A stretch of DNA of 29,154 nucleotides from a virus (Duplodnaviria > Heunggongvirae > Uroviricota > Caudoviricetes): the IMG/VR virus record IMGVR_UViG_2778261301_000008, positions 1 through 29,154 of that record; one strand, given 5' to 3'. The position numbers and the translations under genes are program-made. Below are positions 21,927 through 26,512 of the stretch, one piece after another (positions within the stretch are counted from its first letter, which is position 1; every line of letters starts with the position of its first letter). The notes beneath the pieces are model-generated. The model made no database searches. It worked only from the letters and a program-made list of their open reading frames with translations, and was not told the DNA's origin.

Positions 21927-22001
<75 letters not shown>

Positions 22002-22003
22002 AT

Positions 22004-22079
<76 letters not shown>

Positions 22080-22204
22080 CGCTGGTTCCTCGGGTGTGAA
22101 TGAGATGCCCGGATACATAATTTACCCTTCCCTCGGAACCGCAGAGATAATACAAATAAATAACCAGAATTCAATATTTGCTTATTCGTCTGTCGAAAAA
22201 GTCA

Positions 22205-22374: not shown

Positions 22375-23196
22375 CTATCGCGTTACCCTCTTTAACTGCC
22401 GCTCCGCCCATGACTCTTCAATGTCAAACCGAACCACCAGCGTATCGTAAAAACGCTTCACTGATTTTTTCCACGTATCAAGAGTGATAGCGCTCGTCAC
22501 TTTGCATATGGCATTAAACGCCTCTGTTGACGGCAATCTTTCATAGCCACGACCACCACAACGCTGGCAGTCTCTGATAACAGGCATACCACGTTTTACC
22601 GACTCTTCACGATGAATGGCGACACCACGCCCACGGCAATCCTTACAGGCGGTGGAGACCTCACCCTTTCCCCCGCATTCAGGACAGGCAACTTTTACCA
22701 CTTCCCGGACTTTTTTCCATTCTTCCCAGTAAGACGGATACACGCCTTTTGTACACTTTGCCCATACTGGCGGCTTGCCATCCGGATACTGGACCTTGTT
22801 TGTAAAAACTACGCTTTCAATAAATTTTTTCCCACCGCAACAAGGGCACTGTTTTTTACTCGCTGCACTGCGGGCATAATCCTCAAAAGCGTACGAAGCC
22901 ATAATGCGCATCACTGCCGGTTTTATTTCTGCCGGAAGTTTTCTCAACGCCGCCACGCGATCGCACCGACTGAGTGCATAATCTGCCAGTAATTCTGTTG
23001 CCCGCGCCCTGTCATTCATACTGATGCCCATTTTCCCCAGGAACGCAGAAAATCCCATCTCAGCCCGGTTTTGTGTCATACCCTGCGCAGCCATCACATC
23101 AGTGATGCTCAGCGCATCTTTTGACGTCGAGGCGGATGCATCAGTCAGTCCTAGCGATTTTGGGGAATAGTATTTCGGTAAATCTTCCAGCTTCAT
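22375..23196 (-). CDS. Antitermination protein Q-like, with four CxxCxGxG zinc-finger repeats
   Basis: 273-aa ORF directly upstream of pR'/tR' and the lysis genes; ATG overlaps the rusA stop (ATGA); repeats CPCCGGKK, CPECGGKG, CKDCRGRG, CQRCGGRG. Confidence 0.65.
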   Translation of the reverse strand: MKLEDLPKYYSPKSLGLTDASASTSKDALSITDVMAAQGMTQNRAEMGFSAFLGKMGISMNDRARATELLADYALSRCDRVAALRKLPAEIKPAVMRIMASYAFEDYARSAASKKQCPCCGGKKFIESVVFTNKVQYPDGKPPVWAKCTKGVYPSYWEEWKKVREVVKVACPECGGKGEVSTACKDCRGRGVAIHREESVKRGMPVIRDCQRCGGRGYERLPSTEAFNAICKVTSAITLDTWKKSVKRFYDTLVVRFDIEESWAERQLKRVTR

Positions 23197-23567
23197 TTAT
23201 TGACCTGCCCGTCATGCATTATTTCGTAAATTTTCACGCCCAGTCGACCACCAGGAACGAGCTGACCGCGCACTATATTGATTTCGTCAAACTGCTCATC
23301 GTCGATAAGCAGTCCTGCATGTGTCAGTGCATCCAGTGGTGCCTTCAGGATATTGTCCATGTCGCGGCGGCGCTTATCCGGTGGCTCTGCAATAATCCTG
23401 ATTGCCAATCTACCGGACAGATTTAATTTCAGTCGCTGCTGGCGAACAATAAGCGCCACATCCCGGCGATAACGCTCACCGGCTTTTGATACAAAATATG
23501 TGCTGCCACGACGTCGCCAGTAGGTGTTCACCGTTGGCGGGTAAGGCAAAACAAACTCTATACGCAT
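23193..23567 (-). CDS. rusA: Holliday junction resolvase RusA
   Basis: 124-aa ORF with the RusA-type PPDKRRRDMDNILKAPLDAL motif, similar to recalled E. coli RusA. Confidence 0.85.
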   Translation of the reverse strand: MRIEFVLPYPPTVNTYWRRRGSTYFVSKAGERYRRDVALIVRQQRLKLNLSGRLAIRIIAEPPDKRRRDMDNILKAPLDALTHAGLLIDDEQFDEINIVRGQLVPGGRLGVKIYEIMHDGQVNK

Positions 23568-23579
23568 CAGTAACCTCTT

Positions 23580-24629
23580 TTACCCGAGCACGCCGGTTGC
23601 AAAGGCGTGATCAAGAAAACGAAAAATTAAATCAACCTGGGAACCATGCTTTTCTTCGAACGCCAGCGGATCCGCATGAAGCTCGTTGTGATGCTCCCGA
23701 CACAACGGTAGCGTGAAAATATCGTGGGATTTTGTTCCCATTCCACCCTGACCATGACCAATCAGGTGATGGGGATCGTCGGCTGGCTTACCACAACACG
23801 CGCACGGCTGTGTCTTTACCCAGCGCGTGTATTTCTCATTCATCCAGCGGCGACGTTTAGGTCGCCTCATGAAAGATTCAGGAGACTCCGGATCTACGGC
23901 AATGCTGACCACCGTCTTTTCCTGTGGTGCGTTCTGTTGCTGGTGGACGTGAGGCAACTGCGCAAGATTTTTTGTGCGCTGCTTCAGTATGCTGGTGGCG
24001 GTCTGCTCTCCCGGTATGATGTCGCTTTCGCGGTACACCGAGCGGATTTTTTCCGCACGTAATCCCAGCGAACGACGCAATACTGTCTCCGGTAGCGCGT
24101 CCGCCACCTGATTGCAGACTGCCCACCAGGATAATTCAGCCAGCGATAATTCCCGCTCCTGTGTGCCATTCATTGCCTGGCGTATGACGTCAATCATCCA
24201 TGCTGTCAGGTTTTGGTGAGCAAGTTGCCCGAGTGATTCGGAAGTCTGGTCACGCAGCTGGTTGTCGCAGTGCCAGCACAACACCATCGCGCCAGCACCG
24301 TAACGATGTATGACGGTTTCGCTGTGATGGTAGTCACCATGAGGCCACTGGCAGGATTTAACGTGGCGCAATAGCCAGTCAGACAGTGCACCAGCACCGC
24401 CAGCAGCGCGAATCACCCGCTCATCGCTGAAAAATGGCAGCAGAGATTTGTCTTCCGCCAGCGGCTGGCGAACGGCAGGAACGACTCCGGATGGCAGACC
24501 TCGCATGCTTTTTGGTTCCGGCTCCACCAGCACACGCCCCTGCATAAACAAAGGCATCGCATCAGGACCGGGCCTGAAAAGTACAATCCCCAGACGGTGA
24601 GCAATTTCAGGAGTCACTAATACCCGCAC
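23580..24629 (-). CDS. DUF968-like prophage protein with C-terminal HNH-like motif
   Basis: 349-aa ORF; C-terminus CACCGKPADDPHHLIGHGQGGMGTKSHDIFTLPLCREHHNELH; resembles the YdfU-type nin-region protein from recollection. Confidence 0.6.
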   Translation of the reverse strand: MRVLVTPEIAHRLGIVLFRPGPDAMPLFMQGRVLVEPEPKSMRGLPSGVVPAVRQPLAEDKSLLPFFSDERVIRAAGGAGALSDWLLRHVKSCQWPHGDYHHSETVIHRYGAGAMVLCWHCDNQLRDQTSESLGQLAHQNLTAWMIDVIRQAMNGTQERELSLAELSWWAVCNQVADALPETVLRRSLGLRAEKIRSVYRESDIIPGEQTATSILKQRTKNLAQLPHVHQQQNAPQEKTVVSIAVDPESPESFMRRPKRRRWMNEKYTRWVKTQPCACCGKPADDPHHLIGHGQGGMGTKSHDIFTLPLCREHHNELHADPLAFEEKHGSQVDLIFRFLDHAFATGVLG

Positions 24630-24630
24630 A

Positions 24631-24903
24631 TTACCTCCAGATGCGTTGCTGGAATGTGCGGGACGGACGCGGTGGGCGTTCGGAATAAGGGAGTCTGACG
24701 TAGATTATCCAGTGACGATAATCGAGGGTGAGGGCTTTCCTAAACTCATACCCACGTCTGCGGTAGTTCTGAATCAGCCATTCGGCCTGTTCTTCAGTGC
24801 AGGGATCGTGCTGATACCAGTCATATTTGAATGCGTGCGAACGCCGCCCGTGCCTGCTGGCACGAACGGTATCAGAATTGTGTAATTTGGTCTTGTGCGC
24901 CAT
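24631..24903 (-). CDS. Hypothetical protein (about 90 aa)
   Basis: Track ORF 24631-24957 appears to start on a non-ATG codon, so trimmed to the first ATG (MAHKTKLHNSDTV...); stop lies 2 nt before the DUF968 start. Confidence 0.4.
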   Translation of the reverse strand: MAHKTKLHNSDTVRASRHGRRSHAFKYDWYQHDPCTEEQAEWLIQNYRRRGYEFRKALTLDYRHWIIYVRLPYSERPPRPSRTFQQRIWR

Positions 24904-24967
24904 CTGTTTTCTCTGCTGGCGCAGCAGGTGCCAGTTGTTCAGGCTGGCGTGCGGCAATATTGTCTCT

Positions 24968-25035
24968 GATTTCTGTTGTCGTCAACAGGCAACGTGCTAT
25001 CATCGAATGGTGTTCTATCCTACTCCGTGAGGTTT
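24968..25035 (+). promoter_or_regulatory. Putative parDE promoter with palindromic operator
   Basis: TTGTCG, 16-nt spacer, TATCAT; palindrome CTGTTG-tcgt-CAACAG overlaps the -35 element; GAGG Shine-Dalgarno before parD. Confidence 0.5.
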
Positions 25036-25038
25036 ACC

Positions 25039-25296
25039 ATGCGTACAACCCAACAATTCAGCATTACATTAACTAACGAAATGGCTGACATGGTGCGCGC
25101 CCGTGTGGCTTCCGGTGCCTATGCATCAGAAAGCGAGGTCATTCGTGAAGGACTTCGCGCACTGAATGAGCGCGATAAAGCAATCGAAGCGTGGTTAACG
25201 CATTCAGCCGCCCCCTCTCTTGATTCTATCCGCGAAAATCCAAACAACGGACGCTCCATTTCACAGGTTCGCGCCGAGATTCGATCCGGGAAGTAA
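25039..25296 (+). CDS. parD: ParD-family ribbon-helix-helix antitoxin
   Basis: MRTTQQFSITLTNEMADMVRARVASGAYASESEVIREGLRALNERDKAIEAWL shows the ParD-type pattern; 5 nt upstream of the toxin gene. Confidence 0.8.
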   Translation: MRTTQQFSITLTNEMADMVRARVASGAYASESEVIREGLRALNERDKAIEAWLTHSAAPSLDSIRENPNNGRSISQVRAEIRSGK

Positions 25297-25301
25297 TCTG
25301 C

Positions 25302-25601
25302 ATGACATATGAAGTCATCATTACTCCTGAGGCCGAACAACAAATAATCAACCTGCACAGATATATAACGGAGAAAGCAGGGAACGTCATTGCTGACAAT
25401 TATGCCAATGCGCTTCTTGATTATCTTGATGGGTTTTCTACATTCCCGCATCGGGGCAATAAACGCGATGATATTCGCCAGGGGATGCGGGTAACTCATT
25501 TCCGCCACAGAACGATTATTGCTTTTGCCGTTGATGGCAGAAAAGTCTTTATTGTCGGTATCTATCATGGTGGGCAAAGTTATGAAACCGATTTCTTATA
25601 A
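25302..25601 (+). CDS. parE: ParE/RelE-family toxin
   Basis: 99-aa ORF immediately after parD; size and operon arrangement typical of ParE. Confidence 0.8.
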   Translation: MTYEVIITPEAEQQIINLHRYITEKAGNVIADNYANALLDYLDGFSTFPHRGNKRDDIRQGMRVTHFRHRTIIAFAVDGRKVFIVGIYHGGQSYETDFL

Positions 25602-25683
25602 ACTTTTACCCACATCATTCCGGTGTTAGAATAAACCATCCGCCCCCTCTCTTACTGGCGGATTCGTAGGCTATATAAATCAA

Positions 25684-25718
25684 AGATCCCGGCTCATGTT
25701 TGTGTCGGGATCTTTTTT
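25684..25718 (+). terminator. Rho-independent terminator of the parDE operon
   Basis: AGATCCCG-loop-CGGGATCT followed by TTTTTT. Confidence 0.6.
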
Positions 25719-25725
25719 CGGCGAT

Positions 25726-25809
25726 TTATCCCCAGCGGCAAATCGAATACACCACCAACGCCACCGCCAGTGCGATTCCTACCGTTGTGAATGCTTCAGG
25801 CCAGGTCAT
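25726..25809 (-). CDS. Possible small hydrophobic peptide (27 aa), low confidence
   Basis: Hand translation [27 protein letters not shown]; ATG overlaps the upstream stop (ATGA); GGAGG about 10 nt upstream. Confidence 0.25.
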
Positions 25810-26150
25810 CGTAAAACATCCTCCACGCTTATCAATCCGTTCCGCTCCAGATAACTCATCGCCTTATCCGGTAATTTGCAGTCTGGCTTCGCTTTCCTCA
25901 GTTGCCAGGCTAACTGCTTTACCTGCATAGTTAACTCGTCGACCAGACGCTGATACCCCACTGGTTTGTATTCATGCAATTTACCGGCTGGCTCTGCTGC
26001 CAGCGATACCAGTGCGATTTCCAGAACAGCAATATCCATCTTATATGTGCGGATGATGTCATTGTCGATTGTGCCCGGTATGCACAATCTCTGTGCTTCA
26101 ATAGTCTCCTCTGCGTGAGCTATTAACTGCTCTCTGGTAAAAGTCGTCAT
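25806..26150 (-). CDS. Hypothetical protein (114 aa)
   Basis: ORF with ATG overlapping the HNH gene stop (ATGA). Confidence 0.5.
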
Positions 26151-26512
26151 GCCGTAGCCCCTTCTTGATATTTTTCAAACCAGAACACAACTGGGTCAGA
26201 TTTCATTTCAACCAATCCCATACGAACCAGCGCCTTGCCTTTCCCGGACGCAAGGAATTCACGACGACCATCACTGATAATTCGCCGATAATCTTCCAGG
26301 CTACTGCAATGCTTGTGCAGATTGCATGGGTGGCATGCCGGAACCATGTTGGATATATCGTCACGTTCCTGGTGAAGCATATTTCCATCAAAACGGATGA
26401 CCGGTTTTACATGGTCTGCATGCCACTTTTCGCCAAGTTCGCAGCCGCAATAAGCGCAGCGACCACCGAACTTCATGCGCAGTTCTGCACGTTGTTTTTT
26501 CGTCAGTGACAT
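26147..26512 (-). CDS. HNH endonuclease
   Basis: CAYCGC...HADHVKP...CHPCN motif; AAGGAA Shine-Dalgarno. Confidence 0.8.

Follow-up and report, generated by a model that had tools for sequence, protein, structure and literature searches.

The described systems closest to the one analysed here are the chromosomal toxin-antitoxin pairs of the ParD1/3/4-ParE1/3/4 group, which includes Caulobacter ParDE1 (3kxe) and Mesorhizobium ParDE3 (5ceg, 6x0a). We analysed a parD-parE cassette in a 29,154-nucleotide (nt) stretch of viral DNA (IMG/VR record IMGVR_UViG_2778261301_000008, positions 1 to 29,154; hereafter the window). The window is an Escherichia coli lambdoid prophage; in the region tested, it is 100% identical to the RM8082 chromosome. 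Its parDE pair resembles the ParD1/3/4-ParE1/3/4 group in gene order, in a ribbon-helix-helix (RHH) ParD with a C-terminal toxin-wrapping region and in the ParE fold, and this group provides the best sequence and structure matches for both window proteins. In contrast, toxin identity is ~20-24%, the window copy is located in a lambdoid prophage rather than in a chromosome or plasmid backbone, and its operator region has diverged from the palindrome of the family.

ParE-fold toxins paired with an antitoxin are also found as accessory cargo of other prophages. Two of these have experimental support: ParESO/CopASO of Shewanella CP4So is reported to maintain the excised CP4So (PMC8706911), and PfiT/PfiA of Pseudomonas Pf4 to modulate Pf4 production (PMC7264888). 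PfiT (9w3a) is the top structural match of the window ParE, at an identity of 15-16%. Both systems differ from the window cassette in that their antitoxins belong to other families and their carriers are P4-like and filamentous phages instead of a lambdoid phage. The PaaR2-PaaA2-ParE2 systems of E. coli O157:H7 prophages (5cw7, 5czf) also place a ParE-fold toxin in an E. coli prophage, with a template modelling (TM) score of ~0.7 to the window ParE, but they have three components, a non-RHH antitoxin and a separate regulator, and the identity is 16-17%. These systems have been proposed to stabilise prophages, as cited in a review of prophage stabilisation and defence roles (PMC12548467). In terms of location, the nearest counterpart is relBE-hokD of the K-12 prophage Qin, which occupies the same slot directly upstream of the 90-aa (amino acid) gene, ydfU (DUF968) and a Q-type antiterminator. 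It differs in encoding a RelE mRNase and a Hok membrane peptide, and it is co-oriented with the early genes whereas parDE is opposed to them.

The parD-parE cassette and its proteins

The cassette comprises two co-oriented plus-strand open reading frames (ORFs), with 5 nt between the parD stop and the parE start (Table 1). An intact 99-aa parE was found directly after an 85-aa parD in 74 of 84 related loci, and the pairing was also kept in distant loci (L009-L022 and L112-L116). For both proteins, the closest relatives of known structure are found in one and the same set of ParDE complexes, namely those of Mesorhizobium (6x0a and 5ceg), Caulobacter (3kxe), M. tuberculosis (8c24) and the Pseudoalteromonas PrpAT system (7ycs). 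Using alleles from 80 viral contigs and other loci, the ratio of nonsynonymous to synonymous substitution rates (dN/dS) was 0.06-0.25 for parD and 0.07-0.28 for parE. These values (0.06-0.28 across the two genes) indicate that both are under purifying selection. Collectively, these results suggest that the window very probably carries a complete, selectively maintained type II ParD-ParE cassette, carried as a moron between P and Q in an E. coli lambdoid prophage. Sequence, fold, selection and architecture all lend good support to the mechanism of a ParDE addiction-type module; ParE is presumably toxic and presumably neutralised by ParD.

ParD matched PF03693 with 32.1 bits (cut-off 21, E = 1.6e-7) and TIGR02606, 'antidote_CC2985', with 53.3 bits (cut-off 46.2, E = 2e-14). 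Profile matches to the solved ParD proteins 7ycv, 3kxe, 7b22, 6x0a and 8c24 had E-values from 1e-7 to 1e-4. The AlphaFold2 model was of a monomer, the β-ribbon forming only in the dimer, and had a predicted local distance difference test (pLDDT) score of 89. It showed an extended N-terminus, helices at residues 13-24 and 31-66 and a C-terminal helix at 74-84, which is the layout of an RHH domain followed by C-terminal helices. Its best Foldseek matches were the ParD antitoxins 8c24, 6x0a, 7ycw and 7b22 (TMt ~0.8, root mean square deviation 1.4-1.7 over the RHH domain). The RHH strand MRTTQQFSITL, the DNA-reading N-terminus of ParD, was nearly invariant.

ParE matched PF05016 (ParE_toxin) over its full length with 40.9 bits (cut-off 23, E = 3.2e-10), while no model was matched in an NCBIfam search of ParE. 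The AlphaFold2 model of ParE (pLDDT 85) had the topology β-α-α-β-β-β. All of the top 23 Foldseek matches in the PDB were ParE-type toxins, with TM scores of 0.62-0.73, whereas the mRNases RelE, YoeB, YafQ and HigB reached only 0.37-0.49. A PDB profile search with ParE returned ParE-type toxins only, and an hhalign comparison of the ParE profile with E. coli RelE detected no similarity (probability 0.1%). An exhaustive search gave 1158 representative relatives at E ≤ 1e-3, and 20 ParE residues were invariant from E. coli to Desulfovibrio. The predicted fold and the profile matches thus point to a toxin that is specifically ParE-type, not RelE-type, and by analogy its target is most likely DNA gyrase.

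A first-pass annotation, made by a model that saw only the letters of the window and a list of ORFs, had described a ParD-ParE operon at 24958-25720, inserted on the opposite strand inside the nin region. Its account of the strand arrangement is correct because every neighbouring gene between P and Q lies on the minus strand, and its parD span was right. The RHH ParD-type antitoxin that it proposed is borne out by the family scores and the predicted fold. The structure-based searches that it called for were run, and both predicted folds match solved ParD and ParE. Its 'RelE/ParE-like' label for the toxin held only in its ParE half. Overall, the annotation described a real feature and read it correctly; the refinements concern the type of toxin and the choice of operator.

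Table 1. Positions of the parDE cassette, its predicted regulatory elements and the neighbouring genes in the window.
Feature	Position	Strand	Remarks
RusA	23193-23567	-	left of cassette
DUF968	23580-24629	-	left of cassette
90-aa hypothetical gene	24631-24903	-	left slot flank; from the Prokaryotic Genome Annotation Pipeline (PGAP) annotation of the identical RM8082 locus; PHROG 1212
Left recombination junction	24943-24961		includes AATATT (24956-24961), remnant -10 of a divergent minus-strand promoter
Palindrome CTGTTG-tcgt-CAACAG	24973-24988		overlaps the -35 hexamers of both divergent promoters
parDE promoter-like site	24976-25003	+	-35 TTGTCG (24976-24981), spacer 16, extended -10 TGcTATCAT (24995-25003); 9/12 + TG in consensus scan
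Degenerate homologue of family palindrome, TGGTGTTcTATCCTAC	25008-25023		between -10 and Shine-Dalgarno
parD	25039-25296	+	85 aa; ATG start; Shine-Dalgarno GAGG at 25029-25032, 6 nt before ATG
parE	25302-25601	+	99 aa
Cassette-specific 3' segment	25602-25725	+	accompanies parDE (L097); absent beside doc/hok and higBA cargo
Promoter-like site TTTACC-16-TAGAAT with TG extension	25605-25632	+	-10 invariant, or TAAAAT in variants
Hairpin ATCCGCC/GGCGGAT	25638-25663	+	C/U-rich loop, C-run of 4 to 8 among variants; then A/U linker and terminator
Terminator hairpin	25682-25715, T-run to 25718	+	called from folding and covariation
Micro-ORF	25726-25809	-	27 aa, hydrophobic, unannotated; right slot flank; start overlaps the upstream gene's stop in ATGA
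Hypothetical gene	25806-26150	-	right of cassette
HNH endonuclease	26147-26512	-	right of cassette

The cassette itself is ordinary: it is already annotated, widespread in E. coli including Shiga-toxin (Stx) phages, and belongs to a well-studied class of toxin-antitoxin systems. The whole 851-bp query was present in 328 of 5426 complete E. coli genomes and the exact ParE sequence on at least 1000 contigs. RefSeq names the two proteins 'ParD family antitoxin' and 'RelE/ParE family toxin', and PHROGs 6494 and 5232 file the pair under 'moron', toxin and antitoxin. No experimental study of this particular cassette was found in literature searches on the accessions, ArgO145 toxin-antitoxin work, the operator sequence and a lambdoid nin-region hotspot.

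Many Stx2a phages carry a shortened derivative. Stx2a_JNE122398 (L003, 2584-3562, compared with window 24956-25315) is one example, which retains the promoter and parD (86% identical) but no more than the initial 5 codons of parE. A lipoprotein-like ORF and a HigA-like antitoxin take the place of the remainder of parE. We found this variant in at least 42 complete E. coli genomes. It matches the 'orphan ParD and HigA antitoxins' reported in the enterohaemorrhagic E. coli (EHEC) phages phi346 and phi349 (PMC12502783) and shows that these derive from this parDE, with parE replaced after codon 5.

Promoter, operator candidates and the 3' segment

The site upstream of parD is σ70-like. Its extended -10, TGCTA..(A/T)T, was retained in all enterobacterial relatives as TATCAT, TATTAT or TAAAAT, in line with the promoter of its own that the first-pass annotation had given the operon. 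On the other strand, a scan found TTGACG-18-AATATT at 24985..24956 in the window. In ArgO145, Salmonella, Yersinia and L097, a minus-strand TTGACG-N18-TATATT precedes isrK (RF01394) and the C4 antisense RNA (RF01695), both detected with Rfam (L008 3462-3648, L002 4059-4241, L018 3458-3643 and L097 4462-4648), and these loci lie beside an ORF6N/antirepressor-type gene. The window junction cuts at the -10 of this divergent promoter, which now reads AATATT, and the promoter remnant therefore faces the operon of the 90-aa gene, DUF968, RusA and Q. A tRNA remnant upstream of parD in other phages had been suspected from a GGTTCGAATCC-like motif and was rejected: ARAGORN detected none there, and Rfam identified the element as isrK plus C4 antisense RNA, encoded on the opposite strand.

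The region upstream of parD holds two candidate operators. The palindrome CTGTTG-tcgt-CAACAG, which the first-pass annotation had named as the operator, is present at the -35. However, 13.8% of dinucleotide shuffles of the 110-nt upstream region contained a palindrome with arms of at least 6 bp. Its 6-bp arms were perfect only in window-type loci and in Salmonella L008, with 5 bp retained in ArgO145. In the Yersinia, Izhakiella, Enterobacter and Erwinia loci the left arm had decayed without compensation, while the core GTCGTCAA was invariant and the ParD strand MRTTQQFSITL unchanged. The core is invariant because it is the minus-strand -35, TTGACG, of the conserved divergent isrK promoter. The presence of a palindrome thus stood and its role as the operator was weakened; it may, tentatively, serve as a secondary, clade-specific operator.

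A different and strong palindrome, (T)AGGATT-n-AATCCT(A), was found at -40..-20 from the parD start in ~17 distant parDE loci. Its carriers include Paraburkholderia, Polynucleobacter, Pantoea, Winslowiella, Dyella, Sphingobium, Metallibacterium and the actinobacterium Naumannella, so that its range covers Burkholderiales, Xanthomonadales, Sphingomonadales, Erwiniaceae and one actinobacterium. Wherever the promoter was readable in these distant loci, the left arm of the palindrome coincided with the -10. In the enterobacterial prophage clade the block ATAGTGTTCnATCCTAC was kept throughout and in the same register. A text search of the literature for an AGGATT-n-AATCCT operator sequence returned nothing relevant. 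Judged by its position and conservation, the degenerate homologue at 25008-25023 is the best operator candidate and probably a better one than the palindrome at the -35.

At the other end of the operon, a simple terminator scan missed the hairpin at 25682-25715 and listed only an intragenic one (25523-25542), so the terminator call rests on folding and covariation. The hairpin had a free energy of -20.7 kcal/mol (z = -4.3), and none of 200 shuffles folded as well. Across 15 distinct variants, 99% of cells paired, and two pairs showed compensatory double changes in two different sequences (A-U to C-G and U-A to G-C). These values agree with the intrinsic terminator of the first-pass annotation. 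The opposite-strand version of the hairpin, less stable at -14.8 kcal/mol, carries a U-rich tail and could thus act as an attenuator of the convergent early transcript as well.

Between the parE stop and the terminator, the 3' segment holds a further promoter-like site and hairpin. This segment is either the parDE 3' untranslated region (3'UTR) or a candidate for a ~80-nt small RNA (sRNA), and it could equally be just a 3'UTR. Rfam in E-value mode gave nothing credible on the regulatory and 3' regions of the window, the best E-value for the 3' segment being 0.7. Targets complementary to the C/U-rich loop were not enriched, with 7 matches compared to 6.2 expected. We also observed a near-exact 17-nt direct repeat (16/17) between CAGCCGCCCCCTCTCTT at 25205-25221, inside parD, and CATCCGCCCCCTCTCTT at 25637-25653, in the downstream hairpin. 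The parD copy forms the codons for AAPSL, and the repeat score was reached by 2 of 500 shuffles. Both copies are on the plus strand, and therefore they do not base-pair with each other.

Cassette boundaries and the slot upstream of Q

The boundaries were determined from recombination breakpoints in the 80 IMG/VR viral contigs and from comparison with prophages holding other cargo. On the left, homology to the window broke at 24943-24956 in ArgO145 (L057) and L097-L099; two distant loci had their breakpoint at ~24977. The right-hand breakpoint coincided with the parE stop (25599-25601) in 10 loci and fell at 25809-25811 in 29 loci. The segment 25602-25725 accompanies parDE, while 25726-25809 is also found beside unrelated cargo; the cassette therefore extends over ~24956-25725 and the latter segment is flank. 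The extent of 24958-25720 proposed from the first reading falls close to these breakpoints (~24943-24956 on the left and ~25725 on the right). The ArgO145 copy of the cassette is 97.5% identical and is found outside the nin region, in the leftward early operon close to int. The cassette thus occurs in two different phage operons with sharp junctions. It has the features of a moron: a predicted promoter and terminator of its own, a position between phage genes, and alternative cargo in the same slot.

Read in the direction of early rightward transcription, the genes of the window follow the order Cro-like, YdaT, replication genes, P, several small nin-type genes, HNH and the hypothetical gene at 25806-26150, followed by the parDE site, the 90-aa gene, DUF968, RusA and the Q antiterminator. 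The right flank of the slot is the micro-ORF. It was intact behind four different upstream genes, each of which supplies a GGAG-type ribosome-binding site, and was also present beside doc/hok (L005) and higBA (L006) cargo; it had no entry in the protein collection. The left flank is the 90-aa gene, which was always ahead of DUF968-RusA-Q and was found in 11 of 11 surveyed prophages. Separately, two tRNA genes lie on the minus strand at 21930-22080, downstream of the Q gene and ahead of the lysis genes. tRNA genes between Q and the lysis genes are common in Stx-type lambdoid prophages.

The slot survey covered 11 sampled prophages that share the block of the 90-aa gene, DUF968, RusA and Q (the window, L004-L007 and L106-L111 among them). 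The slot holds parDE in the window, relB-relE-hokD-rem in K-12 Qin, doc and hok in L005, and higBA in L006, also on the opposite strand. In six prophages it holds hokD, alone or with other genes, and in one O157:H7 prophage an NgoMIV-type restriction-modification system. From these contents, the slot upstream of Q appears to be a hotspot for toxin-antitoxin and defence cargo, and their variety fits accessory 'addiction or defence' cargo. In a limited search of the literature, we came across no account of the slot as a hotspot.

These observations could be taken further. The isrK-promoter remnant is directed towards the Q operon and shares sequence with the ParD-proximal palindrome, and ParD occupancy could therefore gate leftward transcription to Q. 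In full, the proposal would make the interval from the micro-ORF to the block of the 90-aa gene, DUF968, RusA and Q an exchangeable slot dedicated to toxin-antitoxin and defence cargo, situated just ahead of the late-gene activator Q; in it, ParD could gate the promoter remnant and 25633-25718 might be an independently transcribed sRNA with a C/U-rich loop. We consider this proposal improbable and offer it as speculation.

Proposed mechanism, alternatives and implications

In the mechanism that we propose, the operon would be transcribed rightwards in the lysogen from the extended -10 promoter, with transcription stopping at the hairpin and its T-run. ParD would dimerise through its N-terminal RHH domain and act as a repressor of its own promoter; the most likely binding site is 25008-25023, and the -35 palindrome may be a second one. 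The C-terminal helices of ParD would wrap and neutralise ParE. Should the supply of ParD cease, for example because the prophage is lost or an infecting phage shuts off host transcription, the ParE set free would poison the cell, most likely via DNA gyrase, by analogy with characterised ParE toxins. On balance, the prophage would be more likely to be retained, and competing phages might be excluded. A role in prophage stabilisation or in abortive infection is plausible.

Some observations weigh against this reading of the cassette. The identity of ParE to any solved ParE is just 12-24%, and the Foldseek E-values for the ParD monomer are weak (0.08-0.3), as is usual for a protein this small. 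The family operator is degenerate in the enterobacterial clade, and its left half-site matches at 4 of 7 positions in the window. Gyrase action has not been demonstrated for every ParE-fold toxin. In a PADLOC-DB scan, neither protein matched a defence family at E ≤ 0.01, and a defence role is therefore without direct support.

The scan bears most on the possibility that the cassette mainly provides the lysogen with anti-phage abortive infection or exclusion and is not a prophage-stabilising addiction module. This possibility is less probable than stabilisation, yet it is the strongest of the alternatives. The restriction-modification system and the other toxin-antitoxin systems found in the same slot are consistent with it, toxin-antitoxin systems have been reviewed as frequent phage-defence elements (PMC12548467), and the orphan ParD derived from this module in some EHEC phages has been discussed as possible counter-defence (PMC12502783). 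Against these points stand the absence of a PADLOC match, the lack of any report of ParDE-mediated phage defence in the literature searched, and the characterised prophage ParE-type systems, which act on prophage maintenance or production (PMC8706911, PMC7264888). It is unlikely that the -35 palindrome, which the first-pass annotation had named as the operator, is the sole ParD operator. Its overlap with the -35 of the parDE promoter and its perfect or near-perfect arms in window-type loci, Salmonella and ArgO145 would fit such a role, but equally good palindromes are frequent in shuffles, the left arm decays despite an unchanged DNA-reading strand in ParD, the invariant core is accounted for by the isrK promoter, and distant members of the family conserve a different palindrome, the counterpart of which in the window is at 25008-25023.

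It is very unlikely that the toxin cleaves mRNA on the ribosome in the manner of RelE instead of poisoning gyrase as a ParE-type toxin would. PF05016 and the RefSeq name span the joint RelE/ParE superfamily, and one fold is common to both subfamilies; within that fold, however, the best structural matches (23 of 23) and the PDB profile search separate the window toxin from RelE, YoeB, YafQ and HigB, the hhalign probability for RelE is negligible, and the partner is a ParD-type RHH antitoxin. We find it hardly credible that the cassette has lost its function and is decaying within a cryptic prophage. Truncated or frameshifted database copies (P0012, P0013 and P0024) and the derivative without parE would fit such decay, whereas in the window both ORFs are intact, dN/dS is well below 1 for both genes, the exact toxin sequence recurs on many contigs and the regulatory elements are conserved. 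A maintained ParD-ParE addiction-type cassette is therefore the reading that we prefer.

The cassette itself is of little importance, and the value of the related results is modest. They provide a concrete prediction of the operator used by a large ParD subfamily, namely AGGATT-n-AATCCT at a position that overlaps the -10. They define one slot upstream of Q in lambdoid prophages that exchanges parDE, relBE-hokD, higBA, doc/hok, hokD and restriction-modification cargo, and they give a direct origin for the 'orphan ParD' of EHEC phages. Together, the operator, slot and orphan-ParD results could guide work on how prophages of Shiga-toxin-producing E. coli are stably maintained and compete with one another.

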